From positions 4,032,001-4,096,000 of the forward strand of contig OZ255836.1 of assembly GCA_965277715.1 (NCBI GenBank): a stretch of 64,000 bases of DNA, given 5' to 3'. The notes under the pieces are model-generated. The model was not told where the DNA came from and did not search any database. It saw nothing but the letters and a program-made list of their open reading frames with translations. The translations under genes and the position numbers were made by a program. Shown in pieces: positions 22,064 through 42,574 of this stretch (positions within the stretch are counted from its first letter, which is position 1; each line of letters begins with the position of its first letter). This stretch comes from Gammaproteobacteria bacterium. GTDB lineage: Bacteria > Pseudomonadota > Gammaproteobacteria > JBCCGL01.

Positions 22064-25000
22064 ATGACCTCATTACTTACCCGTATCACCTGCGTATCTA
22101 CCGTAGTATGCGCCCTAATAGTACAGACGCTGCCTGCAACGGCGGTTGAAGTTGGCGCTACCGCAGGTGAATTCAATGTATCAAATGGTAATGCCAGCTA
22201 TACCCTTCCAATTAAAGTTGCCCCTGGCCGTGGGGGTATGCAGCCAGACGTTGCGCTTTCTTATAACAGTGCGGCAGGCAACGGTATTATGGGGGTGGGA
22301 TGGAACCTTAGCGCAGTATCGGCGATCAGCCGCTGCCCGGCCAATCTGGCGCAGGACGGTTTTATCAGCGGCATAACCTTTGGCGATAAAAGCCGTTATT
22401 GTCTGGATGGTGAACGTTTGATTCCCGTCAGTGGGGCAAACGGTGCTGTTGGCACTGAGTATCGTACGGAAATTGATGGTTATTCGCGCATTCGTTCGGT
22501 GGGGGGTAGTGCTAACAACCCGGCTTATTTTGTGGTGGATACCAAGGCCGGTCATACCATGACATTTGGTTTGGGCAATAATGCTACTGTGGCATTTGCC
22601 TATGGACGGTTGAATTGGTTATTAAGTGAGGTTAATGATAGTACGGGCAATAACCCAATCACGTACAAATACCGCATCCAGGACAATAAACAGTACCTGG
22701 ACAGTATGGAATACAGTGGCGGGAAAGTTAATTTTGTCTACGAGCAAAGAGCAGATGAAAATAAATACTATATAGCAGGTTCTGAAGTCCATACCCGGTA
22801 CCGTTTACGGTCAATTTCTAGCTATCACAATGATGTTATCTTAAGAAACTATCACCTAACGTACCAAAGTAATCTGGAAAACACTTTACTGAGTAGCGTA
22901 CAAGAGTGTACTTCACAAGACAGCCATTGTTTCAATCATATAAGGTTTGGTTGGCAGGGTGAACCTGCTGCTTACAATGCTGTTATTTCCAATACACCGA
23001 CGGCATCAGGTGGGTATGGGTCAAGTGGGTGGCAGTTTTCTGGGTTTCACGATACCAATGGTGATGGATTGCCAGATGCTATCTGGACATACGCTAGTTC
23101 ACTAAATGTTGGTACTCGGGTAGCAGTCAGTCTCGCCGAAGGGTCAGGTCGATACGGTGCTATTATTGTCAATACACCGACGGCATCAGGTGGGTATGGG
23201 TCAAGTGGGTGGCAGTTTTCTGGGTTTCATGACACCAATGGTGATGGATTGCCAGATGCTATCTGGACATACGCTAGTTCACTAAATGTTGGTACTCGGG
23301 TAGCAGTCAGTCTCGCCGAAGGGTCAGGTCGATACGGTGCTATTATTGTCAATACACCGACGGCATCAGGTGGGTATGGGTCAAGTGGGTGGCAGTTTTC
23401 TGGGTTTCATGACACCAATGGTGATGGATTGCCAGATGCTATCTGGACATACGCTAGTTCACTAAATGTTGGTACTCGGGTAGCAGTCAGTCTCGCCGAA
23501 GGGTCAGGTCGATACGGTGCTATTATTGTCAATACACCGACAGCATCAGGTGGGTATGGGTCAAGTGGGTGGCAGTTTTCCGGGTTTCACGATACCAATG
23601 GTGATGGATTGCCAGATGCTATCTGGACATACGCTAGTTCACTAAATGTTGGTACTCGGGTAGCAGTCAGTCTCGCCGAAGGGTCAGGTCGATACGGTGC
23701 TATTATTGTCAATACACCGACGGCATCAGGTGGGTATGGGTCAAGTGGGTGGCAGTTTTCCGGGTTTCACGATACCAATAGTGATGGATTGCCAGATGCT
23801 ATCTGGACATACGCTAGTTCACTAAATGTTGGTACTCGGGTAGCAGTCAGTCTCGCCGAAGGGTCAGGTCGATACGGTGCTATTATTGTCAATACACCGA
23901 CGGCATCAGGTGGGTATGGGTCAAGTGGGTGGCAGTTTTCCGGGTTTCACGATACCAATGGTGATGGATTGCCAGATGCTATTTGGACATACGCTAGTTC
24001 ACTAAATGTTGGTACTCGGGTAGCAGTCAGTCTCGCCGAAGGGTCAGGTCGATACGGTGCTATTATTGTCAATACACCGACGGCATCAGGTGGGTATGGG
24101 TCAAGTGGGTGGCAGTTTTCCGGGTTTCACGATACCAATGGTGATGGATTGCCAGATGCTATCTGGACATACGCTAGTTCACTAAATGTTGGTACTCGGG
24201 TAGCAGTCAGTCTCGCCGAAGGGTTAGGTCGATACGGTGCTATTATTGTCAATACACCGACGGCATCAGGTGGGTATGGGTCAAGTGGGTGGCAGTTTTC
24301 CGGGTTTCACGATACCAATGGTGATGGATTGCCAGATGCTATCTGGACATACGCTAGTTCACTAAATGTTGGTACTCGGTTAGCAATTAGCCTTTCTAAT
24401 GACACAAAACCAAGACTGTCATCAATAACAGACTCTTTGGGCACGCATACGGATATTAGTTACGCCTCTTTAACCGACAAAACGGTCTACACCAAAGGCA
24501 CTGGCGCCGCTTATCCGGTAATTGACCTACAGTACCCCCAATACGTGGTTAGCAGTGTTACCGCCGATGATGGCATCGGTGGCAGTATTTCTACAAATTA
24601 CCACTACGAAGGATTAAAAGCCCATGTAAAAGGCCGGGGTTCCTACGGTTTTGCCAAAATTACCGAAACGTACCCTGACACAGGTAAAACACAGGAAACC
24701 TGGTTCGACCAGAGTGGCTTCCCCTTTACCGGCCATGTGCTCCGCCACACTGAATCGTACAACGGGCAACTCCTGAATGAATCTACCACTGAATATAGCC
24801 AAGATAGTTACTATGCTGGGGTAGAGTCCGTCCACGCGCACCGCACCGTGCAGCGCAGTTATGAACTCGACGGTTCATTAATTAGCACCGTTACTTCACT
24901 GAGTGAAAACATAGATGCCTATGGCAATGTGGGAACTGTCACTGTTATCACTGAGGGTGGTGGTGAAACATTCACCCAAACCACCGTTAGCCAATACGAC

Positions 25001-28000
25001 AACAATACAGATAACTGGCACCTTGGCCGCCTAATGGAAGCGCGTACTACCCACACCACCCCCCAGGGCGATGCCACGCCCAAGCTCAGCCGCTTTACCT
25101 ACGACGCCCATACCGGTTTGCTCGATTCGGAAAGTATTATCAGCACCCAAACCGGTGAAACCTTCCAAACAACGGTTTACCAATACGATAGTTTTGGTCA
25201 GAAAATTGCTGTTACGCTCAGAGTGCCTAACCATGCTGATCGCACCAGCACCACCGAACGGGATGTGCTGGGTCGCCCTACCAGAAGCTGCAACCCTCTT
25301 GGCTTGTGTGAAACCTTTGAATACAACGAACAGGGACTATTAGCCACGCAAACAGGCCCCAATGGCATCACCACCCGTTGGTCATACGATGGCTTTCAGC
25401 GCAAACGCCTGGAAACGCGGGCCGACGGCAACCAGACCCGTATCGATTATTACTTCGCCAATAGCAACCAATGCGGTGAACGAGCAACGTTTGCACACTA
25501 CTGTAGTGTCACCGAGAGTAGCGGCAGCCCGGCGGTGACCGTACAGTTCGACAACCTGGGCCGCGAAGTGCGCAAAATTACCACTGCACTCAACGGTTTA
25601 AAGGTTTACCACGAAACCGAGTACAACCATTTGGGCGAGGTATACCGTGTTAGCCGCCCTTACTTTTTGGGTGACAATATCTATTGGGCCAGTACCCAAT
25701 ACGACGCTATTGGGCGTGTGGTTGAAATCACCGAACCCGGCCCGCATGGCAGCACGAATACAATCAACAACCGCTACAACGGGTTGACCACGACGACCTA
25801 CAACGGCCCCAAGCAATTGGCGAAAACAACCCGCACCAATGCATTGGGACAAACAGTGCGTGTTGAGGAGGAGGAAGGCAGTAGCGTTGAGTATCGCTAC
25901 ACAGTTGACGGTCAATTGCTGACCACCACGGTAGCAGGCGATGCCGCCACGACCATTACCCTCGCATACGACGAGCGTGGCCGCAAAATCAGCATGGACG
26001 ACCCCGATATGGGGTATTGGACTTATGCATACGATGCCTATGGTCAATTGATTCAGCAAACCGACGCCAAAGGCCAGGTTGTCACGATGGATTACGACCA
26101 ACTGGGGCGCCTGGTGCGCCGCCAGGAAACCGAGGGCATCACCACATGGCAATACGGCGATACCAGTGCACCGTTGGGTAGCATTGGCAAACTCCTCGTC
26201 GAAAGTAACGGTGCTGTCAGTAAAACCTACGAATACGACCACTTTGGGCGTACCGTCGCCACCACCCATACTATTGAAGGCACGGCCTACACCACGCGTG
26301 TTCACTACGATGCGCTGGGGCGCGTAATTAAAACTGACTACCCCGGTGGGCAGGATTTCTACACCGAAAATCTCTACAGCGAACTGGGTTTTCTTCACAG
26401 TGTGCGTGGTAGTCGTCTCCGGGCAGAAACCGGTGATCTCAGCCAATTAGCCCCGTTAATTCTGGCCGCGACAGACCTGGCTGAAAGCTACGAAACCCGT
26501 GCGCACACCTTGCGGCGCATTGGGCAGCGGTATCGCGCCAAACTCGACGACTACCGCGCATTACTTGCCATACAAACCCGTGCAGAGGCGAAATATCAGG
26601 CTGACCTTAAAGAAGCTGAGAAAGAAGCTGCCAGTCAACCCTTGGTGAGCGTACAAGTACCGATTAGTGTTGGAGATATCACCATTTTCGTACCTGGCTG
26701 GCGCAGTCAATTGGTTCTGCCAACCAGAGACCCTGTGCCTGTACCGCATTTAAGCGATGACTTGCAAGCCGATCTGAATAGTCAGAAAAGTTTGCTAACA
26801 GAAAGTATAAATAATGCCAAGATAGAAAACCCCCATGTAATTACCCTGGCACCAGTTAATGTCAATGGTATAAGTATTTTCATACCGGTTGAGAATGGCC
26901 AAGGAGTAACACCTACCCAGAACCTTAGTTCTGACGAACAAACAAACCTAACGGCGAGTATTGGGCAAAACCAAACCCTCTCACCGGCGTTTTTAGGCCA
27001 CCTCAACAATACCGTTATTGAGCTTGAGAATGTCATTGCGTTACTCGATCAGCATATCGGCAGTTACACCCAATTGATCGAACAAATCACCGTATTAGCC
27101 GAGCAAACGCTGGCAGCGGCAGATCAAAGCTTCCATTACACACGCAGCCTTGAAAACGGTGCTGAAAGCTATCAAGCACAAACGGCTGATACCCAACATA
27201 TCACCTACTGGCAGGCGCTTGATGCCGATGCGTCCGGTCGCATTACTGCAGAATCGTATGGTAACGGCATCGTTAACGACTACAGCTACAATACCGCCAC
27301 TGGTCAGTTGCAAGTTACCCATAGCGGCCTGCTTGGCAGCACCGCGATACGGCATATCGAATACCAATACGACGCCTACAATAATGTCACATTGCGCGAT
27401 GACCTGGTTAACGACATCCGCGAAACCTTCGAGTACGACCGCTTAGACCGGCTGACCGCCACGCACTTGGTCAGTGAGCGCTTTATCGGTGGTGGTCTCG
27501 ATATTGCGCAAACCCAGAATTATGACGTTTACGGCAATATCACCTACAAATCTGACGTGGGTCACTACCAATACACCAGTGGTCGGCCACATGCTGTTAG
27601 CAGCGCGGGTAATCATCAATACCACTACGATGCCAACGGCAATATGCTCGAAGGCGATGGGCGCCGCTTCACCTGGAACAGTTTTAACAAACCGATCCAT
27701 ATCAGTAAAAACGGCAAATCGGCCCGTTTTAGTTATGGCCTTGACCGGGCGCGCTATAAAAAGATCAATCACACAGGTGATACCACCTGGTACGTAGGGG
27801 GATTGTACGAGAAACAGGTCACTGACAACGGTCAACACACCCGGCATCAATACTACATCTACGCTGCAGGCAATCGGGTCGCCAGCCACAGTGTTTCCAG
27901 CAAGGAAGGTGTAAAAACCCACTATCTGCACAAAGACGCGCTTGGCAGTATCGACACGATGACGGATGCTGACGGTCAAGTGGTTGATCGGCGCAGTTAC

Positions 28001-29320
28001 GATGCCTGGGGTAAACAACGCCATTTTGACTGGCAAGGTGCGGGGTCGCTGTACAGCATGCGTTTACTGTTTACCACCCGAGCGTATACCGACCACGAAT
28101 CGATTGAGGAAGTGGGCCTGATTCATATGAATGGGCGGGTATACGATGCAAGCCTGGCGCGGTTTGTTAGCGCTGATCCGCATATACAGGCGGCGGGCAT
28201 GAGCCAGAGCTATAACCGTTATAGCTATGTGCTGAATAACCCCATGAAGTATACGGACCCTAGCGGGTACTTTTTTAAGAAGCTTTTTAAGTCGATTAAA
28301 AAAGCGGTTAAAAAAGTGGTAAAAGCTATTAAACCATTTATAGGGGTGATCATTGCGGCTGTGGTGACTTTTTATTGTCCACCCTGCTTAGCGTTAGTGG
28401 GGGGAAACGCAGTTGCACTGGGCGCACTGGCCGGGGCGGCAGCAGGGGCAGCCAGTGCGGCTGTTAATGGTGGTAATATACTTAAAGGCGCCATTACTGG
28501 TGGTATATCGGGTGCTATATTTGCGGGTATAGGTGTGTCAGGTTGGGAAGATACAGCGAAGGTATTGGCTCATGGTGTAGCGGGAGGGTTTATGTCTGTG
28601 GTGCAAGGAGGGAAATTTGGGCAGGGATTTTTGAGTGCTGGGTTTGCTAAATTTGCAACGACCAACCTGACTAATGGCGGTGTTTTTAATATGGCTGATC
28701 GAAGTACTGGGAATATTGTGGGCAGAACGGCGGTTGCGGCAGTGGTGGGGGGTACGGCATCTAAGCTTGGTGGGGGTAAGTTTGCAAATGGAGCAGTCAC
28801 GGCTGCTTTCGCTTATACCTTTGCTAATGCTGCAAGAAGATTTGGAGAAGGTGGTTCCCCGTCCTCTGGTACAGCTTCTGGTTCACAACAGGCTAACCCA
28901 AACCGTGTATGGGAAAATCCAACAGGTGGACAAGTACGCGGTTGTGACTCTCAAGGCTGTGGTGGATACGGAGAAGGTCGTAGCTATGGCCCACATCAAG
29001 GCGCAGATTATGTAGCAACGCCTGGACAAGATGTGGTTGCAGTCACTGATGGCGTTATAGATAAGATTGGTTATCCCTATACCAATGATCTGTCTTATCG
29101 ATATGCAAGAATAACAACTCTCGATGGTTATGTAGTACGTCAGCTTTATGTTGCGCCAGCATCCGGCATCAGCGTTGGTGCAAGTGTTTCTGCTGGTCAG
29201 ACTATTGGAACGTATCAAGGCTTAGGAACTCGGTATCCGGGTATTACTGAGCACGTTCACGTGGATATTCGACACAATGGCCAACAGGTAAATCCAACGA
29301 CTTTGATTCCTTCGCCGTGA
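22064..29320 (+). CDS. Large RHS/YD polymorphic toxin: signal peptide, SpvB-like N-term, 8 FG-GAP-like repeats, TcB-mid, YD shell, RHS core, Gly-rich hydrophobic linker, M23 peptidase tip
   Basis: YTLPIKVAPGRGGMQPDVALSYNS (SpvB); DTNGDGLPD repeats; many YD dipeptides; HMNGRVYD...RFVSADP...NRYSYVLNNPMKYTDPSGY core; HQGADY...HVH M23 zinc motifs. Confidence 0.92.
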   Translation: MTSLLTRITCVSTVVCALIVQTLPATAVEVGATAGEFNVSNGNASYTLPIKVAPGRGGMQPDVALSYNSAAGNGIMGVGWNLSAVSAISRCPANLAQDGFISGITFGDKSRYCLDGERLIPVSGANGAVGTEYRTEIDGYSRIRSVGGSANNPAYFVVDTKAGHTMTFGLGNNATVAFAYGRLNWLLSEVNDSTGNNPITYKYRIQDNKQYLDSMEYSGGKVNFVYEQRADENKYYIAGSEVHTRYRLRSISSYHNDVILRNYHLTYQSNLENTLLSSVQECTSQDSHCFNHIRFGWQGEPAAYNAVISNTPTASGGYGSSGWQFSGFHDTNGDGLPDAIWTYASSLNVGTRVAVSLAEGSGRYGAIIVNTPTASGGYGSSGWQFSGFHDTNGDGLPDAIWTYASSLNVGTRVAVSLAEGSGRYGAIIVNTPTASGGYGSSGWQFSGFHDTNGDGLPDAIWTYASSLNVGTRVAVSLAEGSGRYGAIIVNTPTASGGYGSSGWQFSGFHDTNGDGLPDAIWTYASSLNVGTRVAVSLAEGSGRYGAIIVNTPTASGGYGSSGWQFSGFHDTNSDGLPDAIWTYASSLNVGTRVAVSLAEGSGRYGAIIVNTPTASGGYGSSGWQFSGFHDTNGDGLPDAIWTYASSLNVGTRVAVSLAEGSGRYGAIIVNTPTASGGYGSSGWQFSGFHDTNGDGLPDAIWTYASSLNVGTRVAVSLAEGLGRYGAIIVNTPTASGGYGSSGWQFSGFHDTNGDGLPDAIWTYASSLNVGTRLAISLSNDTKPRLSSITDSLGTHTDISYASLTDKTVYTKGTGAAYPVIDLQYPQYVVSSVTADDGIGGSISTNYHYEGLKAHVKGRGSYGFAKITETYPDTGKTQETWFDQSGFPFTGHVLRHTESYNGQLLNESTTEYSQDSYYAGVESVHAHRTVQRSYELDGSLISTVTSLSENIDAYGNVGTVTVITEGGGETFTQTTVSQYDNNTDNWHLGRLMEARTTHTTPQGDATPKLSRFTYDAHTGLLDSESIISTQTGETFQTTVYQYDSFGQKIAVTLRVPNHADRTSTTERDVLGRPTRSCNPLGLCETFEYNEQGLLATQTGPNGITTRWSYDGFQRKRLETRADGNQTRIDYYFANSNQCGERATFAHYCSVTESSGSPAVTVQFDNLGREVRKITTALNGLKVYHETEYNHLGEVYRVSRPYFLGDNIYWASTQYDAIGRVVEITEPGPHGSTNTINNRYNGLTTTTYNGPKQLAKTTRTNALGQTVRVEEEEGSSVEYRYTVDGQLLTTTVAGDAATTITLAYDERGRKISMDDPDMGYWTYAYDAYGQLIQQTDAKGQVVTMDYDQLGRLVRRQETEGITTWQYGDTSAPLGSIGKLLVESNGAVSKTYEYDHFGRTVATTHTIEGTAYTTRVHYDALGRVIKTDYPGGQDFYTENLYSELGFLHSVRGSRLRAETGDLSQLAPLILAATDLAESYETRAHTLRRIGQRYRAKLDDYRALLAIQTRAEAKYQADLKEAEKEAASQPLVSVQVPISVGDITIFVPGWRSQLVLPTRDPVPVPHLSDDLQADLNSQKSLLTESINNAKIENPHVITLAPVNVNGISIFIPVENGQGVTPTQNLSSDEQTNLTASIGQNQTLSPAFLGHLNNTVIELENVIALLDQHIGSYTQLIEQITVLAEQTLAAADQSFHYTRSLENGAESYQAQTADTQHITYWQALDADASGRITAESYGNGIVNDYSYNTATGQLQVTHSGLLGSTAIRHIEYQYDAYNNVTLRDDLVNDIRETFEYDRLDRLTATHLVSERFIGGGLDIAQTQNYDVYGNITYKSDVGHYQYTSGRPHAVSSAGNHQYHYDANGNMLEGDGRRFTWNSFNKPIHISKNGKSARFSYGLDRARYKKINHTGDTTWYVGGLYEKQVTDNGQHTRHQYYIYAAGNRVASHSVSSKEGVKTHYLHKDALGSIDTMTDADGQVVDRRSYDAWGKQRHFDWQGAGSLYSMRLLFTTRAYTDHESIEEVGLIHMNGRVYDASLARFVSADPHIQAAGMSQSYNRYSYVLNNPMKYTDPSGYFFKKLFKSIKKAVKKVVKAIKPFIGVIIAAVVTFYCPPCLALVGGNAVALGALAGAAAGAASAAVNGGNILKGAITGGISGAIFAGIGVSGWEDTAKVLAHGVAGGFMSVVQGGKFGQGFLSAGFAKFATTNLTNGGVFNMADRSTGNIVGRTAVAAVVGGTASKLGGGKFANGAVTAAFAYTFANAARRFGEGGSPSSGTASGSQQANPNRVWENPTGGQVRGCDSQGCGGYGEGRSYGPHQGADYVATPGQDVVAVTDGVIDKIGYPYTNDLSYRYARITTLDGYVVRQLYVAPASGISVGASVSAGQTIGTYQGLGTRYPGITEHVHVDIRHNGQQVNPTTLIPSP
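22991..24385 (+). repeat. Coding tandem repeat, 180 bp x about 7.8, near-identical
   Basis: Units start at 22991, 23171, 23351, 23531, 23711, 23891, 24071 and 24251 and differ by only a few substitutions. Confidence 0.97.
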
Positions 29321-29330
29321 GTATCTAAAA

Positions 29331-29891
29331 ATGAATTTTTTGATAAAGATGATTATTGGTATTGGCTTCATTATTTTAGTTTCGGGTTGCTCCAAAACTG
29401 AAGCTGCAATTGACTGTGATGTTCCAGAAGTTATCGAAGGGCATCACGACTATAATAAGTTTGTATGCATTGGAGTCGAACAGGTACAGGAGCAAAAATA
29501 CGAAAAAGCTATTAAGTCATTTGAGGCTGCCCTTGCTTTACACTTGTTCGAGACTCCTAACTTTGAATTATTCCCTCAATTAGCTTGGGCCTACTTTAAA
29601 GCAGGTGATCTTAAAAAGGCTGAGGATAACTTAGAGAAGGCTGAGTTATCACTTTCTGTATTTACTGGAATACTAGAGTGTGGAGAAAGTGAAGGTGGGT
29701 TTTATCTACACGATCAAAATGGTGTTCGCCGCACTGGAAAAATTAACGATGAAGTCACTGCCATAATGTGCGGGGCTGCTTACGATTATATTTATGAACG
29801 TCAATCTCTTGAACGTGTGCTACTAGAAGCAGGAATTGTAAAACGTTATTTTGATGTGAAACAGCGAATCGAAGAAATAGCCAGTAAGTGA
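29331..29891 (+). CDS. Lipoprotein with TPR-like helices; putative cognate immunity protein
   Basis: Lipobox LVSGC; AT-rich; 10 bp after the toxin stop. Confidence 0.75.
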   Translation: MNFLIKMIIGIGFIILVSGCSKTEAAIDCDVPEVIEGHHDYNKFVCIGVEQVQEQKYEKAIKSFEAALALHLFETPNFELFPQLAWAYFKAGDLKKAEDNLEKAELSLSVFTGILECGESEGGFYLHDQNGVRRTGKINDEVTAIMCGAAYDYIYERQSLERVLLEAGIVKRYFDVKQRIEEIASK

Positions 29892-29898
29892 TCTATGC

Positions 29899-30012
29899 TT
29901 ATTCAATCTGCTCGGTCGTCAACACCAAACAGCCATCCATCACCCTGATCTTAACGGGCGTATTCATATCAAATCCCGCGTCTCTCAGCCAGTGACCTTT
30001 AATATTGATCCA
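29899..30012 (-). pseudogene. symE: SymE-family toxin, C-terminal fragment
   Basis: WINIKGHWLRDAGFDMNTPVKIRVMDGCLVLTTEQIE* is the SymE signature; the 5' part is cut off at the motif beginning 30017. Confidence 0.75.
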
Positions 30013-30128
30013 GAACGAAAAATAGGACAGGCACTATATAGAAATATAGTAAGCGCCCAATGGCACTAAGAAGAAAAGCAGAAAAGGGGTCAGGCTAGTT
30101 ATTTAGTATAAACAAAGTATTTTTTGTT

Positions 30129-30155
30129 AAAGCCTCGTATACCGGAGGCTTTTTT
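30129..30155 (+). terminator. Rho-independent terminator-like hairpin
   Basis: AAAGCCTC-loop-GAGGCTTT followed by a T-run. Confidence 0.5.
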
Positions 30156-30287
30156 ATTGGCTTATGTAGCGTGCCACTTTCTGATCGTATAAATCCCCAA
30201 ATTATCTATCATAGTATTTTTCGAAAAAGGGGTCAGGCTAGTTATTTACTATTTAAAAGATGAAAGTAGAAATAGGACAGGCACTAT

Positions 30288-30384
30288 AGGTCACTGACAA
30301 CGGCCAACATACCCGGCATCAACACTACATCTATGCTGCAGGCAATCGGGTCGCCAGCCACAGCGTTTCCAGCAAGGAGGGTGT
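30288..30384 (+). pseudogene. 97-bp orphan fragment of a paralogous rhs YD region
   Basis: 91/97 identical to 27816-27912; 5 of the 6 differences are synonymous. Confidence 0.9.
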
Positions 30385-30922
30385 TAACGAAAAAGGGGTC
30401 AGGCTAGTTATTTACTATTTAAAAGGAAAAATAGGACAGGCACTATATAGAAATATGCAAGGACATCCCGAGAAATTGGAAATAGCGCCCAGGATAGTCA
30501 AACCTGATTTTTTTACTTACTTAGGGGGTTATTCGGTGTAATGATCCAGTTATTGAGCCTTGTTTTAATGAAAAATATTTTTTCAGGCAAATGTAGCGTG
30601 CCACTTTCTGATCGTATAAATCCCCAAATTATCTATCATAGTATTTTTCAGTTTTTCGGCGTTTTTGCCACATTCCGATCATAATAAAAAATACTTTTAC
30701 CGCATTAAAATCTGACGTTTTACCCATCCATATTATACCCGTACGATAACCTCGGCTGACCACGATACTCTCGTAGGTTGCCCTTTATGATGTCATGGGT
30801 TAACTTGTAACAGGGAGCACATAGCCCCCTGTTACGATAGATGTCGCAAACAACGTTTCTCTAAGAGTTGATGCTATTTTCACTGTCCGAAAAGGATAAG
30901 GTGGGTATCCTGGTTCTCTCCC

Positions 30923-31729
30923 TTACGCCACTTGCTGTTTGATTAATTCTTCATGAGAGCGCCAATGGGGTTGTACCAACACATTGTTGACATAACTGAT
31001 TGTCACGATTTTTTTGGTTTCTCTACAAGCTTCGATAAGACTGCCATAACACAGATTGCGGCAGAGCCGTAAGTTTCCCTGTGCTGAACGTACGATCAGC
31101 TCGATAGCGGCGCTATCAAAGGTATTAATGCCCATCCTAACCGCTTCCAACTCTTTGATGATATAACGTTCCAGGTCATCGTCATTGAGCGGGGATATAT
31201 TTTCAGAATAAGTAATACGACTCTTGATATCCTGGTTTACATTCATAGACAGGTAATACAATAAATCCCGCTGTCCAAACAGTATCAGGTTATGTTTTTT
31301 CGGAAAACGTTCAAACAATAACCTTAGCTTTCGCAACACTAGCATGTCCAATAAATGCGCTTCATCAATCAGGATATAAAGCGTTTTTCGATCCCGGATA
31401 TGATTAAATGCGCTGATGATTAATTCCTTTTCCAAGTCTTTAACAGCGACCTCAATTTTAAACGACTCCGCCAGTTGTTTGAGAATATTGAGGTAAGTAT
31501 GCAAAGTGCGTGAGCAGGATACAACCGTGATGTTGCGTTCTTTTTGCAGATTTTCAATATGCTCAAACAGTACGCTTTTACCGACACCAGGTTTGCCGAT
31601 AACGACAGAGAAACCCCCTTGCTGGGAGTGAATCTTGATGATATCAAGGATCTTCTTCTGTTGGGGCAATAGTGTCAAGTCACGCCGATTAAAGGGTTCT
31701 TTGGTGAGTCCGAAGATGGATTTAATCAT
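30923..31729 (-). CDS. ExeA/TniB-like AAA ATPase (transposition helper)
   Basis: FGLTKEPF, Walker A GKPGVGKS, Walker B ILIDEAH; overlaps the transposase stop. Confidence 0.85.
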   Translation of the reverse strand: MIKSIFGLTKEPFNRRDLTLLPQQKKILDIIKIHSQQGGFSVVIGKPGVGKSVLFEHIENLQKERNITVVSCSRTLHTYLNILKQLAESFKIEVAVKDLEKELIISAFNHIRDRKTLYILIDEAHLLDMLVLRKLRLLFERFPKKHNLILFGQRDLLYYLSMNVNQDIKSRITYSENISPLNDDDLERYIIKELEAVRMGINTFDSAAIELIVRSAQGNLRLCRNLCYGSLIEACRETKKIVTISYVNNVLVQPHWRSHEELIKQQVA

Positions 31730-32963
31730 GGGTTAGCGCCTTTTTTCTGAGGTTAGCATTATAGTGGAGATTCAGTACTGTGGCGTCCCCCATACGTGTG
31801 TCAGCAAAATAGACCACAAAACGATCTCGCTTAGTCCGGTCATAACGCACCTGGATGGTTTTTTCCCGCAAATCCACCGGGCATTCGTATTTTTGTGAGT
31901 TGATAGAAAAGACATTGGTTTTACTGACTTTGCGATTTTCTTGGATAAAGAAAACCTCTTCGGTGTACTCATCGTCAGTGAGGAAATGGATACGGCTATG
32001 GTCGAGGTTAAACCGGTCAATCGGTATCATTCCAATGCCGGTATGGTGCTTGGTGTTATAGTCATTTTCTACCCATTCACCGGTCAGCGCGTTGAGTTTA
32101 TCCAATGACTCAAAGGTTACATGTTGGACTAAAAACCGATCACGGAATCCCCGAAAGAACCGTTCGATTTTACCTTTTGCTGCACCGTCCCTAATGGGTG
32201 CATGGGACAGATGAATATTCAGGCGCACACAGGCTTGTAGTATTTCTTTAGAGGTGTAGTTGGCCCCGTTATCAAAGTAGAGTCTTTCGGGTTTACCGCG
32301 TTTAAACAGAGCGGCTCGAAAGGCCTCCACCATGTTGTCGGTATTATCCCGATAAAAGAATTCGCCGTGGGTAATGACCCGGCTGGCATCGTCAATAAAG
32401 GCGATCAGAAAGGTCTTTTTCCATTTGCCATCGGGTTGTTTGATTGAAGGCCCATACAGGGTATCGGCCTGCCAGAGTTCATTGGCAAACTGCATAGAAA
32501 AGGATCGTCGAAGTTTTTGTATTTGTTCACCATTAAGCAGATCATTTTCTCTAAGCATACGATAGAAAGAGGTTTGTGAGAGTTGGCTACGCTGAAAGTA
32601 ATTGCGCTGAAGTCACTGGCGATAAATGGCCTGTTTTGGAACGATGCCTATTTTATTGTGACTTAACGTTGGAAGGATGTCATTAATGGCCTCAGCCAAT
32701 TCGTTGAGCTGGATTTTCCGGTAACTGTTTTTATCCGCGCGGGTTTTGCTATCAAGTGCGGTGACACCGTGTTTTTTATACCGGTACAACCAGGTGCTGA
32801 TGGTTCGCCAGGTAAAGGTGTACTGGCACCCGGTTTGTTCGTCGTGGAAGGTACGGTTGGCGACCTGTTTGATGCGTTTGCGGATCGACTGGCCGGGCGC
32901 ATAATCGACAGCGCTTAAGACACGCAGCCTGAGTTCGAGGGGAGGATGTTGAGTGGATTTCAT
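31722..32963 (-). pseudogene. DDE (rve/Mu-like) transposase interrupted by a single in-frame TGA
   Basis: HTH part (MKSTQHPP...AIYRQ*) continues in the same frame after TGA at 32613-32615 into LQRNYFQ...WQADTLYG...FIDDASR...YFDNG...KGKIERFF. Confidence 0.85.
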
Positions 32964-33177
32964 GTTAGACCTCATTAAACGATGGATGAGGTTGGGGATG
33001 GTAGAGAGCGCCATGGTGTTAAACGAGTGACGGATTCTGTTGCAAGAATAGAGGAGGCGATAAAGCCTCATGGTTTTGCGCGGCGGTGGATGATAATGTG
33101 GTAATGCCTATTTGTGATGGTGGCTCATATTTGGGGTGTATTGGGTAAATCAGCGGGTATCCTGATGATGGTAAACG

Positions 33178-33741
33178 TTAAATAAACGCCGTTTGTCGGC
33201 GGTGCTGGTAGTGGGTGCAGGGGTTGGTGGGTAGAGTTGAAAACAGGGTTTGCAGGGTAGGCAATACTACTCTCAAACGTCGTGTTCGCGTCTTGAAACG
33301 TTCGGCAAGGGAGGGTGCGTGTAAGGCGAGTCCTTGTCTGAAGTTCATCAATTTAAGGCTTAGCTTATGTAACCAACGATACGCATTGCGAGGGTCTTTA
33401 GTACCGGTAGCGGCTTCATAGGCCTGTTGAATACTACACAATGCGATCAACGATAAAAGAAAGGTAAAAAGGTGCTGAGTGGAGTAGCGAAGGGAGGGAA
33501 TGGTCTCGGCCAGATACAGTCTACGAGTTGTGCCGCAGCCCGTTTTTGCGTGTCGATTCGTGCAGAAAATGCGTTTGCCGACAACAACTTTCTGGGTGCT
33601 GGAGATCTGTTTGTAGACAAAGCCGTGGGAGACAAACGAGTTGCATTTAAACCAGTTAGGGCATAGTAGCTCATCCTGATGGAGGTCAAGTTCCAGGGTG
33701 TAGCGATGCAGGGTGTCAACGTTATCAAAATAGGTGCGCAT
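33178..33741 (-). CDS. Transposon accessory protein with Cys motifs and possible HTH
   Basis: CPNWFKC...RIFCTNRHAKTGCG...NAYRWL; first gene of the element. Confidence 0.6.
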   Translation of the reverse strand: MRTYFDNVDTLHRYTLELDLHQDELLCPNWFKCNSFVSHGFVYKQISSTQKVVVGKRIFCTNRHAKTGCGTTRRLYLAETIPSLRYSTQHLFTFLLSLIALCSIQQAYEAATGTKDPRNAYRWLHKLSLKLMNFRQGLALHAPSLAERFKTRTRRLRVVLPTLQTLFSTLPTNPCTHYQHRRQTAFI

Positions 33742-34030
33742 AGTGGCGATTGTAAAGTGCTAAAGGGCTTTTACGCCGCTGATCAATTAAGTTAATGGCG
33801 TTGAACACCCCAGGGCATAATATTTTCAGTAGAAATTTGTGTTGCCACATTACCGTTATAACGCAGTGATGTTACTACGATCAGAATGTGGTTGAAAAAC
33901 GGCGGTTTGTACAACAGTAGCTTGGTAAATAACAATAGCCTATATCAGAAAGCAGTTAGACATCGGAGAGTTCTATGAGATGATGTACCAGATTGAAAGT
34001 CAATTGAACAGTGAATAACTGGCCTGACCC

Positions 34031-35596
34031 GAATGGCACTTCCTTAAGCTCTAAGTACATGAAAAATATGGAAGTACTTTCATTGTAAATGACCTATTTC
34101 TGTTTTTTGGGATGGCCATATTTTTTAACAACACTTCTGGCCACGTCCCTTGGCTGCATCAATAAACGATATGGTTTGGGTCTTCGTTTAACCACTCTTG
34201 GTTCAATACGCCCCGGTCGATTACCCACACAGTTTTCTGCAATCAACGCACATAGCGCCAACACCTTATCACTACCCAGAGGGCTACCGCCTTTCTGATA
34301 ACGATACGCTACCCAAATTTGTAACGTATGCTTAAAACTTATCTGTCGAGGCAGTATGTCCACTAGTAAAGCAGATTGCGCCATTAATAAGCGAATAAGG
34401 TTGTAAGCTAATATGTGTACCCACATTTCCTTCTCAACCATTTCTGGCGTCTTACAACGGAAGGTGTGCATCTTCATTGTCGTTTTTATATGGCGTAAAT
34501 CAAGTTCGACATGCCAGCGTTCTTTGTAGAGCTGTTTAAGCGCCTCTTTAGACGCCGATTTAACTAATAACAACGTTGTCACCAACAGTTTTTTACCCAC
34601 TTTCAGTTCACGTATAACCACTTCATCAGCAGCCGCTTCATAGGCTTCTTCGCTCATCCACTCTGGTCTTTTCTTGGGCTTTGTATAACAAATCAGATGA
34701 TCCTTCGATCCAAGCCTTTTGCCTTCTCGAAAATCTGTGGATTTACGCCGCGCACCATGCGGCTCAAATACACCGTCTACTCCTTGCTCTATAAGGTTTG
34801 CTAGAAAAAAATAACCCGCAAAATAGGCATCACCCACCACAATATCACCCGGTTTAAGCGCATTTTGTATTTTTCTCAATAACGTTTGCTCATCCGCTCC
34901 CTTACCTTTAAAAGGACCCATTGCCGCATCGAGAACACCACCACTGGCTAAACAAATAATTCCTACCCAGCGACAAAGAGGAAAACCGATCCCCACTTTC
35001 TGGCCTGACTGTTGTGGATAAACTACCTGATTTTCAGGCGTATCGGGCATTGTCACAGTGGTGCCGTCAACCAATTTAACTGAACGCCCTTGCCAGTGCC
35101 AGTGACTGGCCGCTTCATTCGCCACACACTCGCCTGTACAACGGGCAAGCCCTGAGACGAGGGGGGTTGGCAGCCTTTGTCGCGCTTTACAATAACTCCC
35201 TGTATACGTATTACTCACTGATAAACCTTCACTTAATCGCTGTACAGCGAGTGTGTTGACAGCTTGCTGGCAGGACTGATCTGCACTCATTGTTTGGTAT
35301 AAAAACAGCGATAAGGTGTCTAGAGGAGGATAGCGACGCGCTCGAAAATCCGGTTGTAATTCTTCCAGTTTCGTAAGTAACTGAGAGGATGTCAGCAAGT
35401 GATAAAAACTCAATGCATCCGAGGATTGAGCTCGGCTTTTGATGCGACGTTGAAGAATGTTGACTTTTACATTATTCTGCATGATGGCTGGTTCCTATGG
35501 GATAAAGGGTATTTGTGTTGACAACAAATAACCTACCATAGAACCAGCTTTTTTTGTAATTACTTCAAATACTTACAGCTTAAGGAAGTGCCATTC
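34031..35596 (-). mobile_element. IS4-family insertion sequence (1566 bp)
   Basis: Terminal IRs GAATGGCACTTCCTTAAGCT...AGCTTAAGGAAGTGCCATTC enclosing a transposase. Confidence 0.92.
34094..35482 (-). CDS. IS4-family transposase
   Basis: LVDGTT, GDAYF, YKERWHVELDLRHIK (YREK motif), EPRVVKRRPKPY. Confidence 0.92.
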   Translation of the reverse strand: MQNNVKVNILQRRIKSRAQSSDALSFYHLLTSSQLLTKLEELQPDFRARRYPPLDTLSLFLYQTMSADQSCQQAVNTLAVQRLSEGLSVSNTYTGSYCKARQRLPTPLVSGLARCTGECVANEAASHWHWQGRSVKLVDGTTVTMPDTPENQVVYPQQSGQKVGIGFPLCRWVGIICLASGGVLDAAMGPFKGKGADEQTLLRKIQNALKPGDIVVGDAYFAGYFFLANLIEQGVDGVFEPHGARRKSTDFREGKRLGSKDHLICYTKPKKRPEWMSEEAYEAAADEVVIRELKVGKKLLVTTLLLVKSASKEALKQLYKERWHVELDLRHIKTTMKMHTFRCKTPEMVEKEMWVHILAYNLIRLLMAQSALLVDILPRQISFKHTLQIWVAYRYQKGGSPLGSDKVLALCALIAENCVGNRPGRIEPRVVKRRPKPYRLLMQPRDVARSVVKKYGHPKKQK

Positions 35597-35681
35597 GGGT
35601 CAAGGCAGTTATTTCCTATATTTCTTGCTGGAAACCACTGTTTTTATCCGTATTAGTCGTTGTATGGTGAATAATAAGCCT

Positions 35682-35718
35682 GACCCCCTTGCTGGACCCC
35701 CTTGCTGACCCCCTTGCT
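35682..35718 (-). repeat. Triple tandem GACCCCCTTGCT (inverted motif-B end)
   Basis: Copies at 35682, 35695 and 35707, following AATAATAAGCCT. Confidence 0.8.
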
Positions 35719-35779
35719 TTTGTTCAAATTATGTAGGTGGTGATCATCGCATTCCGCCAGGTCTTTTTTAGGAAGTTGA

Positions 35780-36361
35780 GTGAAATTTACAATGAGAAAT
35801 TTCGTCATGAAACATGATTCTTTTTTTATTGTGCTATTGCTGCTTTTACTTCAGGGGTGTGTGCCGTATGTTAATCAGTTTAACTATATATCGTTGGTAG
35901 ATGTACCCGATATTCAAGTATTAGAATACGGCAAATATGAACCTGGGAAAATTTTTTCCCACGAGGAAATGCCGGTTAAATATGAATTACCCAGGGCGTC
36001 ATATAAACTGTATTTTGAAATAGATAGCTACAGTGCAGGTAAAGTTTTGATGGTATGGTCAAAATCTAGCTCTGACGATCCCTTAGATGTAAGAGCTGTC
36101 GATGTTGAAGGGAGCTGTGGTGGATTCAGGAGTTACCGGTCAAAAAATGAATATTGGAACGCTGTTAGAGCGAAGTATTATTCTTGGGGAGCTAAAACTC
36201 GGAACTGCACTTCTGAAGGCAGTAGTTATCAGCTTGATGTTGATCAAAAATATCGAGTGATTGCATTTGAAGTTTTGGATGGAGAGATTGTTTTAGGTAA
36301 AGAGGTAATCCCGTTTAAATGGGTAAACAACGGTTACTATGTTCATAGTGATTCGTTGTAA
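35780..36361 (+). CDS. Lipoprotein; putative orphan immunity protein
   Basis: Lipobox LLQGC; AT-rich; flanked by GGGGTCA/GGACAGG motifs. True start may be ATG 35792 or 35807. Confidence 0.7.
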   Translation: MKFTMRNFVMKHDSFFIVLLLLLLQGCVPYVNQFNYISLVDVPDIQVLEYGKYEPGKIFSHEEMPVKYELPRASYKLYFEIDSYSAGKVLMVWSKSSSDDPLDVRAVDVEGSCGGFRSYRSKNEYWNAVRAKYYSWGAKTRNCTSEGSSYQLDVDQKYRVIAFEVLDGEIVLGKEVIPFKWVNNGYYVHSDSL

Positions 36362-36387
36362 GTAAAAATCATACGGAAGATAGGGTA

Positions 36388-36458
36388 AAAAGGAAAAATA
36401 GGACAGGCACTATATAGAAATATGCAAGGACATCCCGAGAAATTGGAAATAGCGCCCA
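36388..36458 (+). repeat. 71-bp exact duplicate of 30421-30491 (motif A plus extension)
   Basis: Direct comparison of the two segments. Confidence 0.9.
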
Positions 36459-36479
36459 AGAACAAAAGGGGTCAAGGCA

Positions 36480-36686
36480 GAATGGCACTTCCTTAAGCTG
36501 TAAGTATTTGAAAGTATTGGTATTACGTGCTTGGTTCAGATAACTTGGCATATGGTTCTTGAAAGCAATATTTGTAAAACTATCCCGGTTATCATTGGCG
36601 GCAACTTTCAAAATATCATTTTTTTCTTAGAAATAATAAATAAACTCTTTACTATCAGTTGCTTACGTCTTAAGGAAGTGCCATTC
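36480..36686. mobile_element. MITE (207 bp) with the ends of the IS4 element
   Basis: GAATGGCACTTCCTTAAG...CTTAAGGAAGTGCCATTC with no transposase. Confidence 0.88.
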
Positions 36687-36713
36687 GGGTCTAGCCTTTC
36701 TGATAAGCGCTTG

Positions 36714-37304
36714 TCAATGGTAGCTTCTTAACATACCCACCAAAATACCTTGAATGGTAACGCGCCCTGCCGCGTAGTACATCGGCTGCATATCGATATT
36801 TTCCGGGATTAGTTCAATCTTTTCACTGACCTCCCCAAGGCGCTTCAGTGTCGCCTCGTGTTTATCAATCAGGGCGACGACAATGTCCCCACGCCGGGCA
36901 AAGTTTTGTTTTTGTACAATCACCGTATCGCCATCCATGATGCCCGCACCCGTCATCGATTCACCACGAATACGCAGCGCGTAGCGGTTGGGACCAGCAA
37001 AGTGGGTAGCCATGTCCAGCGTCGTTGGCTCTTCAATCGCCTCGATAGGCTGTCCGGCAGCAATCGTGCCGAGCAAGGGGATACGCGTGTGTGTATGTTC
37101 AGTGTCTGCCAGCCGGATACCCCGCCAACCGGTTTGCTGCTGCACCAGGTGGCCTTTGTCAATTAAGCTGTGTATATAGCGGTGTGTCAGCGATCTGGCC
37201 TGCCCAAGTGCTCCGGCTATTTCGCTGATAGTGGGGCCTTGTTGATATTCGTTTTGGTAGTTTTCGAAGTATGCCAGCACGCGCTTTTCATTTTCTTTCA
37301 GCAT
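36714..37304 (-). CDS. lexA: LexA transcriptional repressor
   Basis: PTISEIA wHTH, IAAG cleavage site, GESM catalytic Ser, ATLKR catalytic Lys. Confidence 0.85.
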   Translation of the reverse strand: MLKENEKRVLAYFENYQNEYQQGPTISEIAGALGQARSLTHRYIHSLIDKGHLVQQQTGWRGIRLADTEHTHTRIPLLGTIAAGQPIEAIEEPTTLDMATHFAGPNRYALRIRGESMTGAGIMDGDTVIVQKQNFARRGDIVVALIDKHEATLKRLGEVSEKIELIPENIDMQPMYYAAGRVTIQGILVGMLRSYH

Positions 37305-37470
37305 TCTTGTTCACTCGATGAATCGAAAACATAGCATAGTGAATGTCCACCGAACGTTCAATGTTTTTCAAACACTTTTATTCGGTGCAATTCTTGCTGT
37401 AATCCGGCTTGTATGGGCAGGGTGGTAAATCGATTAATTTAGAGTTGAGCAGGGGATAGATTTAAACGCA

Positions 37471-38277
37471 ATGAAGGTTTGGTCGGTTTGCAACCAGAAA
37501 GGTGGGGTGGGTAAAACCACTACGGTGGTGACACTGGCGGGGTTGCTGGCGCAGTCCGGTGCAACAACACTGTTGGTGGATCTCGATCCACACGGCTCTA
37601 TGAGCAGTTATTTTGGTATTAACCCGGATGAGACTGAAGACAGTGTGTACGGTCTTTTTGAGCAGGGCGCCAATACGCTGAGTGTATTGGCGAATATAAG
37701 GAATACGGCATTTGAAGGTATTTCCCTACTGCCAGCCTCGACAGCACTGGCCACGCTGGACCGTCAAATGAGCACGCGCCCCGGTATGGGGCTTATCATC
37801 AAACAAGCCTTGAAACGGGTTGAGGCACACTTTGACTTTGTCATCCTCGACTGCCCGCCGGTGCTCGGTGTGCTGATGATTAATGCCCTGGTTGCCTGCC
37901 AGCAGTTGTTGGTGCCGGTGCAAACGGAGTTTCTCGCTCTAAAAGGGCTGGAGCGAATGCAGCGTACACTGTCGATGATCTGCGCATCGCGCACTATTGA
38001 GCCGCAGTGGATGATTGTACCCACCCTATACGATCAGCGCACACGGGCTTCGGTGCAAACCCTGGCCACGTTGCGGCAACATTATTCACAGCGGATGTGG
38101 AATTCGATGATTCCGGTCGATACACGATTTCGCGATGCCGCTAAAGCGGGCAAACCACTATCTTATTTTGGTCGCCAGTTTCGCGGTGTGCAGGCGTATG
38201 CAGCGCTGTTGGATTACCTGTTGATGGATGATATGCCACTTGCCAGAGAAGTTGCGCAGGTGGCCGAGTGCGGGTGA
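37471..38277 (+). CDS. ParA-family ATPase, chemotaxis-associated (ParC-like)
   Basis: NQKGGVGKTTT, DLDPHGS, LDCPP, VQTEFLALKGLERM. Confidence 0.88.
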   Translation: MKVWSVCNQKGGVGKTTTVVTLAGLLAQSGATTLLVDLDPHGSMSSYFGINPDETEDSVYGLFEQGANTLSVLANIRNTAFEGISLLPASTALATLDRQMSTRPGMGLIIKQALKRVEAHFDFVILDCPPVLGVLMINALVACQQLLVPVQTEFLALKGLERMQRTLSMICASRTIEPQWMIVPTLYDQRTRASVQTLATLRQHYSQRMWNSMIPVDTRFRDAAKAGKPLSYFGRQFRGVQAYAALLDYLLMDDMPLAREVAQVAECG

Positions 38278-41674: not shown

Positions 41675-42553
41675 TTGGCAAGTATGAATGACAACATCGC
41701 GCACCTACCGGAATCCAAACAGGACGAGCTAAGACGTATTGCCGAAGTAGTGCGCAAAGAATGCGATAACGTGGAAATGGTTGTTCTATTTGGCTCCTAT
41801 GCGCGTGGCGACTGGAAGGACGGCCCGCACGAACAGGGTCGGGGCCGAATGCTTATTCATAAAAAAAGTGACTACGATATTCTTGCTATTACCCGCAACG
41901 AGTACATTGCCAAAGATGTCACGCTTTGGCACAAGATCAAAGATGAATGCACCAAGCTGAACGTCAGCGCCTATGTTCGCATTCTCGCCCGTGATATTGA
42001 GTTTATTAATTACAAGCTTCATCAGGGACAGTACTTTTTTACCGAGATCATACAACAGGGTATCGCGCTTTATGACAGTGGAAATGTAGAGCTGGATGAA
42101 AAGCGACCGCTTGACCCTGCTGAAGAAAAGCGGATCATTCAAGCGGATTTGGATGAGGCTTTTTCAGCCGCTAAAGAATTTTATGAAGGCTGCGAATGGA
42201 ATATGACAAAAGAGTACTTCAAGAGAGCTGCTTTCAATCTTCATCAGGCGTGTGAACATGCCTACAAAACTATTCTGCTGATTTTTGCAGGAGAAAGCCC
42301 ACAAGAACACCATCTGAATGTTTTGGGCGATATGGCGGCAGACTACTGCCCAGATTTAGTTGGTGTAATACCCCGTGAAACCCCCGAACAAAAAGCGCTG
42401 TTTGAATTGTTGGACTATGCGTATATTGGTGCTCGTTATGATCGGAGTTATAAAATTACCCAAGAGCAGTTGGCAGTTTTGATTCCCTGTGTGAAAAAAC
42501 TGCATGAAGTGGTCGAGAAATGTAGTAGTGAGCGTATGGCGGGTTTTTGTTGA
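41675..42553 (+). CDS. Fused nucleotidyltransferase (MNT)-HEPN domain protein
   Basis: LFGSYARGDW...SDYDIL Pol-beta motif; AAFNLHQACE...HHL...AYIGARY HEPN. Confidence 0.88.
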   Translation: MASMNDNIAHLPESKQDELRRIAEVVRKECDNVEMVVLFGSYARGDWKDGPHEQGRGRMLIHKKSDYDILAITRNEYIAKDVTLWHKIKDECTKLNVSAYVRILARDIEFINYKLHQGQYFFTEIIQQGIALYDSGNVELDEKRPLDPAEEKRIIQADLDEAFSAAKEFYEGCEWNMTKEYFKRAAFNLHQACEHAYKTILLIFAGESPQEHHLNVLGDMAADYCPDLVGVIPRETPEQKALFELLDYAYIGARYDRSYKITQEQLAVLIPCVKKLHEVVEKCSSERMAGFC

Positions 42554-42574
42554 TATATTGTCGATTGCATTTAT

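Follow-up and report, generated by a model that had tools for sequence, protein, structure and literature searches.

Repeats resembling TIRYT terminal repeats, and nested mobile DNA, behind an Rhs toxin gene of a gammaproteobacterium

The DNA that follows an Rhs toxin gene in the genome of a sponge-associated gammaproteobacterium (GenBank assembly GCA_965277715.1, contig OZ255836.1) raises the question of how a series of unrelated gene fragments came to be joined at two short recurring motifs, A and B. The window analysed is the 64,000 nucleotides (nt) from position 4,032,001 to 4,096,000 of this contig, and the stretch in question occupies positions 29,899 to 36,686 of the window. An initial annotation had proposed that a trans-acting recombinase cuts at the motifs and builds an array of toxin and immunity DNA, an integron-like or CRISPR-like store for conflict between bacteria. 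The analysis described here indicates that the stretch is probably a landing zone, rich in repeats, that lies 3′ of rhs cassettes and has been rearranged through nested insertions and deletions. No dedicated capture system is needed to explain it, and none is demonstrated by the data presented.

The recurrence of the two motifs was borne out by a census of the window. The core of motif A (ATAGGACAGGCACTATA) has four matches, all exact, at 30022, 30272, 30431 and 36398, as compared with 0.10 expected from shuffled sequences; the GAAA(A) starts of motif A thus lie at 30017, 30269, 30426 and 36393. The core of motif B (GGGGTCAGGCTAGTTATTT) is exact at 30086, 30229 and 30395, inverted copies with three mismatches each are located at 34013-34031 and 35669-35687 (shuffle expectation for these five matches 0.01), and variants with GGGTCAAGGCA are found at 35597 and 36469, giving three exact copies and four variants in total. 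When one mismatch was allowed, the degenerate pattern AAAANNGGNCAGGC gave nine matches in the 64 kb against 1.76 expected, seven of them behind the rhs gene and the other two, both with one mismatch, elsewhere. Within the window, the exact motifs and their variants are thus confined to 30.0-36.5 kb, behind the rhs gene. The two motifs are related, as GAAAAA..GG.CAGGC is common to both, and the repeated units extend beyond the motifs as annotated, B2 being identical to B3 over 38 nt and A3 to A4 over 71 nt. Their spacing is irregular (143, 166, 250, 159 and 5967 nt), and some repeats are directly adjacent. The toxin gene, the repeat units and the pieces between them are arranged as follows.

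22064-29320, plus strand: TcB/TcC-like Rhs polymorphic toxin of 2418 amino acids (aa) with a C-terminal M23 peptidase (Pfam SpvB, FG-GAP, TcdB_toxin_midN, RHS_repeat and Peptidase_M23; translation)
29331-29891, plus strand: TPR lipoprotein, candidate immunity protein (TPR families; lipobox LVSGC)
29899-30015, minus strand: 3′ half of symE, its 5′ part replaced by motif A1 (SymE_toxin profile; reading frames)
30017-30105, plus strand: A1-B1 unit, A1 at 30017-30047 and B1 at 30081-30105 (motif matches, repeat search)
30129-30152, plus strand: terminator-like hairpin followed by a T run
30164-30222, plus strand: solo 59-nt copy of a transposon end, 100% identical to 30591-30649
30223-30288, plus strand: B2-A2 unit (motif matches)
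30288-30384, plus strand: 97-nt fragment of a paralogous rhs gene in its native frame, approximately aa 1918-1949 of the main protein
30389-30494, plus strand: B3-A3 unit, its first 38 nt equal to B2 and its 71-nt A3 unit equal to A4
35792-36361, plus strand: lipoprotein of no known family, candidate orphan immunity gene (lipobox LLQGC)
36393-36479, plus strand: A4 unit, then a B variant cut by a miniature inverted-repeat transposable element (MITE)

The sources assigned to the pieces (a symE 3′ half, a 59-nt transposon end, a 97-nt rhs fragment and a second lipoprotein gene) were confirmed. The Pfam SymE_toxin match (29902-30033, minus strand, E value 4e-14) is limited to profile positions 22-54 of 54; hence, the symE piece is the 3′ half of the gene. 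The rhs piece shares 93.8% identity with 27816-27912 of the main rhs gene, the conserved part of which is multi-copy up to approximately 28800 (GGGKFANGA), and the six differences are all transitions. The lipoprotein encoded at 35792-36361 has no Pfam or NCBIfam match, is unrelated to the TPR lipoprotein encoded at 29331-29891, and has two homologues (99% and 51%) among 5.8 billion clustered proteins, both from run assemblies. It looks like a member of a fast-evolving, lineage-restricted family, as expected of immunity proteins. The pieces were also said to end at or close to the motif starts, and they do so at 30015/30017, 30222/30223 and 30384/30389.

Motif B carries the signature of a known class of repeats. 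TIRYT genes are Y1 transposase genes flanked by terminal inverted repeats (TIRs; Di Nocera et al. 2013, PMC3733652), some of which include the consensus GGGGWSAS and form repeat families in dimers or clusters. The link to this consensus had been drawn in the initial annotation and holds, as motif B contains GGGGTCAG, which fits GGGGWSAS. Motif A (TAGGACAG) and the B variants GGGGTCAA at 36466 and 35596 do not fit it. A further hallmark of TIR families, occurrence as a repeated family in single copies, dimers or clusters, is seen in the three exact copies and four variants, an inward-facing doublet and tandem partial copies. Inverted copies flanking a Y1 gene are absent from the window and present in the relative G266 and at 20 of 30 loci of the Y1 clade described below. 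The locus thus has two of the three hallmarks, the third being the flanking Y1 gene. TIRtrons resemble the locus in their GGGGTCAG core, in their occurrence as single copies, dimers and clusters of a moderately abundant family, and in that the gene with such repeats is found in G266 and many Gammaproteobacteria. The locus differs from them in the lack of a Y1 gene in the window, in the weak arms of B, which form no clear palindrome, in the absence of GGGG from A, and in its site directly 3′ of rhs modules, which goes unmentioned in PMC3733652.

G266, located by hill-climbing with CmoB, is the closest relative in the genome collection and the sole genome of its order there. Its CmoB shares 59% identity with that of the window, and identity is 70% over the N-terminal 419 aa of the product of the open reading frame (ORF) at 54647-58144, which matches the acyl-ACP--phospholipid O-acyltransferase family. 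The single Y1_Tnp gene of G266 (Pfam E value 3e-12) lies 1.1 kb downstream of an orphan rhs fragment that corresponds to aa 1907-2127 of the Rhs protein in the window. The order is orphan rhs, two small ORFs, two direct copies of ATCAATGGGGTCAGACACGATTGAT, the Y1_Tnp gene and an inverted copy of the repeat. In all, G266 has 12 copies of the ATCAATGGGGTCAGACACGATTGAT repeat and none of the reversed control. A Y1_Tnp gene flanked by the motifs themselves, which the initial annotation had called for, was not found in the window; the gene in G266 is flanked by repeats containing GGGGTCAGAC near an orphan rhs. The suggested occurrence of GGGGWSAS repeats near rhs genes was likewise supported in part, by G266 and the other genomes; PMC3733652 has no occurrence of "rhs".

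Members of the Y1 clade (E values up to 1e-45) were found in 104 of the 399 gammaproteobacterial genomes sampled. A GGGGWSAS motif lies within 260 nt upstream of the Y1 gene at 20 of 30 loci (19 of 29 without an unpublished genome); at these 20 loci GGGGTCAG is always among the motifs, mostly 50-150 nt before the start. At several loci, partial copies preceded by an A-rich prefix stand in tandem and resemble those of the window. RHS similarity was detected within 1.5 kb at four of the 30 loci, and within 8 kb at six of 41, the latter comprising the seed locus in G266 and the best 40 other places listed, with the unpublished genome left out. In all six, the 3′ end of rhs points at the Y1 gene from a distance of 0.8-2 kb, and five are co-directional. 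At the three loci where a preceding ORF was called, the first repeat follows within approximately 60 nt of its stop. In the other genomes, the repeats follow the rhs module at its 3′ end and do not flank it on both sides. Two more adjacent Y1-rhs pairs were seen in G359:C71 and G342:C2, and a second rhs fragment in G124 is followed at approximately 0.8 kb by three solo repeats with no Y1 gene there, as in the window. Random placement would give approximately 0.1-0.6 loci, a floor because it is based on the ~189 rhs matches listed in the 399 genomes with up to four candidates scored per genome; as compared with this, six of 41 is a clear excess. Some genomes have several Y1 genes or gene fragments of this clade clustered within 10-17 kb (G316:C3:901759-919114 and L142, from G118:C4), which is unusual, as descriptions of the gene mostly give it as single copy.

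The remainder of the stretch consists mostly of mobile DNA, and one of these elements provides independent information on the nature of motif B.

30591-33933, minus strand: broken TniA/TniB-type (Tn5053/Tn7-like) transposon with genes for a TniB-like protein (30923-31729), a TniA-like protein (31722-32558 and 32613-33071) and ORF187 (33178-33741) (Pfam AAA_22, rve, rve_3 and Mu-transpos_C; repeated end sites; contig breakpoints)
34013-34030, minus strand: variant of motif B in inverted orientation, directly beside the left end of the insertion sequence (IS)
34031-35596, minus strand: IS4-family IS with transposase gene 34094-35482 and ends starting GAATGGCACTTCCTTAAGC (NCBIfam transpos_IS4_1, DDE_Tnp_1, inverted ends)
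35597-35688, no strand assigned: doublet of approximately 91 nt, two inward-facing B-type repeats; the 11 nt GGGTCAAGGCA at 35597 are also found at 36469
35681-35722, minus strand: three tandem partial repeat copies (GACCCCCTTGCT), a habit also seen beside Y1 genes in L098, L105 and L114
36480-36686, no strand assigned: 207-nt MITE made of the ends of the IS4-family element

The IS has a DDE transposase (NCBIfam transpos_IS4_1, 214 bits against a cut-off of 115) and terminal inverted repeats, and its target duplication is indicated by a relative and by an 11-nt flank. This flank, GGGTCAAGGCA, stands on the right of the IS and on the left of the MITE, as expected if both had inserted at one and the same point of such a B-type repeat. 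The tip GAATGGCAC is found in relatives of the IS, and the copy on an Acidovorax plasmid has a direct 10-bp duplication just outside this tip. The full copy at 34031-35596 has no direct duplication; on its left it is flanked by an inverted repeat copy, consistent with an exchange among IS copies at a later time. Four further sites with IS ends of the signature GAATGGCACT.ACTTAAG were present among loci that had been fetched for other reasons. At three of them, from two other genomes, the IS end meets a GGGGTCA... repeat precisely 12 nt past the first G of the repeat (L145 at approximately 7194-7290 of the reverse complement, forward approximately 9488; L146 at 12469; L163 at 409), and the left end of the MITE in the window has the same 12-nt register. 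A further IS copy in the sequencing run designated X6 has GGTCAGGCT before the tip, which fits the register to within one base. As the IS enters B-type repeats and Y1-associated repeats in one register, B behaves as one of the latter. From these sequences, the IS4 subgroup looks like a specialised hunter of Y1-associated GGGGTCA repeats.

Target-specific insertion sequences include IS4, with the target AAA-N20-TTT, and REP-hunting elements such as IS1397. The IS described here resembles these in its fixed position of entry and 10-11 bp duplication, and the repeat in the window, like the AAA-N20-TTT target, has A-rich and T-rich arms approximately 20 nt apart; the difference is that the target here is a TIRYT-type repeat. 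Short repeats in irregular intergenic mosaics are also known as REP/BIME sequences with RAYT transposases and as the neisserial intergenic mosaic elements. They are likewise recombination points and insertion targets; as compared with REP/BIME, the repeats in the window have no GTAG tag and no stable hairpin and, within the window, are confined to the rhs locus instead of being scattered through intergenic regions.

The transposon, too, is disrupted. Its TniA-like gene (rve/Mu-transpos_C) is interrupted at 32559-32612, contigs break at 33933/33934, and a depth of about twice that of a single copy indicates approximately two copies per genome. Internally deleted forms of the transposon occur in another run, and a variant of the 59-nt end follows the post-B spacer in other strains.

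The stretch was found in eight listed runs from four studies, comprising five sponge metagenome runs and three of a coded organism; the runs of study P4 contain 75-86% of its sequence words. The data are contigs, not reads; they were aligned to 27500-37500 and break at repeats by construction. In X6, the summed contig depth is 700-1676 before 28835 and 254 after it, in the toxin tip, a 3-6x ratio; the motif stretch at 30172-30839 has approximately 4.5-5x the depth of the toxin tip, and the IS has 8-15x. In the public runs, the motif-bearing stretches have approximately 4-5x single-copy depth, similar to the conserved part of rhs. The unique contig of the window starts at 28759, within the conserved region around GGGKFANGA, and stops at 30046, after 30 nt of A1. 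Other contigs (three in X6, one in X1 and two in X3) leave the conserved rhs end at 28788-28796 and stop 22-30 nt into B3, B1, A4 or the variant at 36460; they would represent other rhs copies, in which the variable toxin-immunity part is also followed by a motif. In X3, 28836-29837 is without cover. The enrichment of the motifs at rhs loci that had been envisaged thus holds within the window, where they are confined behind rhs, and is extended to the other rhs copies of the organism by contigs that appear to tie the motifs to them.

Further contigs from the runs contain tandem B-B arrays, a B site without the IS and, in X3, an A unit duplicated in tandem over 104 nt. Contigs of X3 also join fragments of lexA and of transposon genes to the 5′ edge of B, 3-20 nt away from it. 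This edge is a fixed junction to many different sequences, and these fragments show that the sequences joined at B are not selectively toxin or immunity DNA. The description of the pieces as toxin and immunity DNA is accordingly not supported; they are whatever DNA was close by, given the transposon end in the window and the transposon-gene and lexA fragments in other strains.

The explanation considered probable for the whole stretch is as follows. The DNA behind the toxin-immunity pair would be dominated by a lineage-specific family of repeats of approximately 26-31 nt, of which motif B would be the TIR element of TIRYT-type Y1 (HUH) genes, with an A-rich arm, a GGGGTCAG(G/A)C core and a T-rich arm, and motif A a diverged relative. 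A Y1 enzyme encoded elsewhere in the genome and acting in trans may have seeded and spread both. The repeats, which occur singly, as tandem copies and as a doublet facing inward, would lie in tolerated DNA downstream of rhs toxin-immunity modules. They are the preferred target, in one fixed register, of the IS4-family element and its MITE, and the TniA/TniB-type transposon is also part of the array. Nested insertions, adjacent deletions, inversions and recombination between repeats or IS copies may then have cut the neighbouring DNA (the start of an orphan rhs, symE, the transposon end), and cutting at the edges of repeats would explain why pieces end at motif boundaries. As a by-product, the repeats could provide downstream homology for the exchange of rhs tips.

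Several observations weigh against this explanation. No Y1 transposase similarity was detected in the 64-kb window by tblastn (best E value 6.8) or Pfam scans, and the cognate enzyme is thus putative. Motif A has no GGGG, and no A-like motif of note was found in the ~120 loci fetched (L085 and above). Aligned to 91 TIRs, motif B reaches at best 22/28 identity, which is no better than shuffled B (mean 17.8, maximum 23); hence, its assignment depends on its core and arms, on the register of the IS and on where it lies in the genome. The A/T arms of B are weak and form no significant hairpin, and most TIRs of the Y1 clade are clear palindromes. G266 has no B-type motif, a B-like 13-mer giving two matches against one for the control, both in unrelated contexts; no TIR was found within 9 kb downstream of its main rhs gene and no rhs within 7 kb of its other TIR copies (five loci). 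The contig joints, being taken from contigs and not reads, leave the sequence between them not known. Finally, in a control with one rve transposase locus per genome, two of 40 had an rhs 3′ end 1.6-3.1 kb away, from which the difference to six of 41 for Y1 is not significant (Fisher one-sided p = 0.14; five of 40 against two of 40 without the seed locus, p = 0.22) in a statistic that ignores kinship among genomes that may be related. Since rve transposases are also found near rhs 3′ ends, the DNA behind rhs tips appears to be a general landing zone for mobile elements.

The reading closest to the initial proposal is improbable. In it, the motifs would be the cleavage sites of a dedicated Y1 (HUH) recombinase that acts in trans and actively collects and rearranges DNA for toxins and immunity proteins, as an integron-like store for conflict between bacteria. 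This reading would account for the TIRYT core of motif B, for the Y1 genes with repeats directly 3′ of modules of rhs and small ORFs (six of 41 loci, mostly co-directional), for the presence of motif A or B after every rhs variable module seen in the runs, for the many different sequences that abut the fixed 5′ edge of B in other strains, and for the complete lipoprotein gene of a polymorphic family between repeats. However, the window contains no such enzyme; the inclusion of a transposon end and of transposon-gene and lexA fragments among the pieces speaks against selectivity for toxin or immunity DNA; the repeats in other genomes do not surround the rhs module; the rve control is also found near rhs; and no excised or circular forms were observed, although contigs are unable to reveal them. 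It is equally unlikely that TIRYT-type Y1 enzymes and GGGGTCAG repeats form a conserved accessory of TcB/TcC-type rhs loci that nicks single-stranded DNA at the 3′ boundary of the cassette for capture or exchange, in which case the window would be an enzyme-less, heavily used array. A different and somewhat less doubtful possibility, compatible with the landing zone, is that the repeats are passive, the A/B unit serving as the downstream and the rhs core as the upstream homology arm for RecA-dependent swapping of toxin-immunity tips among paralogues, and the mosaic being the wear left by these exchanges. As each rhs copy is seemingly followed by an A/B unit, the repeats may indeed serve in this way: X6 contains at least four modules, that of the window included, in which unique toxin-immunity contigs are bounded by the conserved rhs end and motif A or B, the exact repeats, at 31-71 nt, have sufficient length for exchange by homology, and the duplicated A unit in X3 is consistent with it. 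However, the junctions of the 97-nt rhs piece and of symE with the motifs have at most 2 nt in common, so that these joins would be illegitimate or site-specific and not homologous, and no strain comparison displayed a tip swap with a crossover inside a motif.

It is very unlikely that the motifs have a role as RNA, coding or regulatory sequence, for example as stabilisers of the 3′ untranslated region, terminators, a small ORF or the starts of toxin tips. In favour of such a role, a frame is open for 85 codons across the rhs piece, B3 and A3. On the other hand, Rfam gave no match in 28000-38000 at E values up to 1, none of five motif units folded as DNA better than shuffles (z from -1.56 to +0.50 for A and B), promoter-like sites are not in excess (two found, 2.8 expected), the reading frames of A and B vary between copies with stops intervening, and copies occur in both orientations and in tandem. 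The idea that the motifs are conserved coding starts of toxin tips was dropped owing to these frames and stops. Least probable of all, and considered refuted, is the origin of motif B from the outer end of the IS4-family element through an inverted repeat extending 50 nt. The arms at 34014-34063 and 35564-35613 (50 nt) are indeed 90% complementary, the B-like part included. However, the IS relatives have the tip GAATGGCAC, immediately beyond which the direct 10-bp duplication is found; the IS is absent from B1-B3 and from empty B sites in the runs; the IS on its right and the MITE on its left have identical 11-nt flanks, as expected of a target duplication; and in other genomes this IS tip is found directly beside TIRs of Y1 genes.

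Comparison with systems that assemble conflict genes gave further distinctions. The integron- or CRISPR-like array of the initial annotation did not stand: no integrase is encoded among the scanned ORFs and the motifs fold no better than shuffles, the spacing is irregular, Rfam gave no CRISPR match, and no full cas gene was found in the scans. The ORF at 21602-22051, upstream of rhs, has a weak, below-cutoff match to Cas3_C. Rhs orphan toxin-immunity modules are reportedly known from work by Koskiniemi et al. (2014) and Poole et al. (2011). The stretch resembles them in that the main gene is followed by a piece of rhs core, which starts near the orphan start in relatives (aa 1714-1907, as compared with aa 1918 here). 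It differs in that the 97 nt are all that is left of the core, the toxin tip and its cognate immunity gene being missing since motif B3, directly after it, cuts the module off.

The concept put forward in the initial annotation is matched more closely by rAID-1 of Bacteroidales, in which an XerD-family tyrosine recombinase accompanies long co-directional arrays of immunity genes (bioRxiv 10.1101/471110), and by the polyimmunity loci beside XerC/D (PMC3482391). Both are conflict-linked arrays with repetitive intergenic sequences and an associated recombinase. The window differs from them in having at most two candidate immunity genes, both for lipoproteins, and an HUH-type repeat, and no XerD-family recombinase is encoded among the scanned ORFs.

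The ORFs scanned for recombinases were those in the range of the stretch and ten flanking it, five on each side, and no Y1 enzyme, integrase or recombinase of another kind was detected among them. On the left they encode methyltransferases, one with a strong Methyltransf_9/CmoB-type match, and on the right a ParA-like ATPase and CheW proteins. The exact 22-mer of motif B has no match in the genome contig collection, and a megablast search of the whole region against plasmids gave none. The exact 19-mer of motif A has one match in metagenome contigs, which lies within an unrelated coding region and was taken as chance.

A gene for a LexA-like repressor (36714-37304, minus strand; TIGR00498, 137 bits) marks the edge of the zone of mobile DNA. 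No relative with more than 46% identity is present among the 80 loci kept from the scan of the genome collection, and fragments of lexA are joined to motif B in another sponge metagenome. Further away, a gene for a nucleotidyltransferase-HEPN protein (41675-42553) adjoins one for a DUF6602 protein (42575-43294) on the opposite strand; together the two genes (41675-43294) could form a small islet of defence or toxin-antitoxin type, a few kb away from rhs. In the N-terminal part of the Rhs protein, encoded at approximately 22960-24270, about eight near-identical tandem FG-GAP-like units of approximately 54 aa (TPTASGGYGSSGWQFSGFHDTNGDGLPDAIW...) are found, and the perfection of these repeats suggests a recent expansion or an assembly-sensitive region.

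If the landing zone is the correct reading, the locus is an instructive but ordinary case, in which the DNA behind a polymorphic toxin gene has been broken up into pieces bounded by motifs through short transposase-type repeats, a transposon and an IS that hunts such repeats. The IS4-family element keeps to a single register of entry in at least three genomes, which makes it a clear natural case of insertion at a specific target. In the literature searched, no paper linking TIRYT, RAYT, REPIN or IS200-type genes with rhs loci was found, nor any account of Y1 genes with GGGGTCAG repeats directly behind rhs modules in several Gammaproteobacteria; the only paper found to include both RAYT and Rhs treats them separately, and a match to IS200 was an unrelated transposon. 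Should the link between Y1 genes and rhs be real, the function of TIRYT and RAYT genes and the 3′-side exchange of rhs tips would become testable together.

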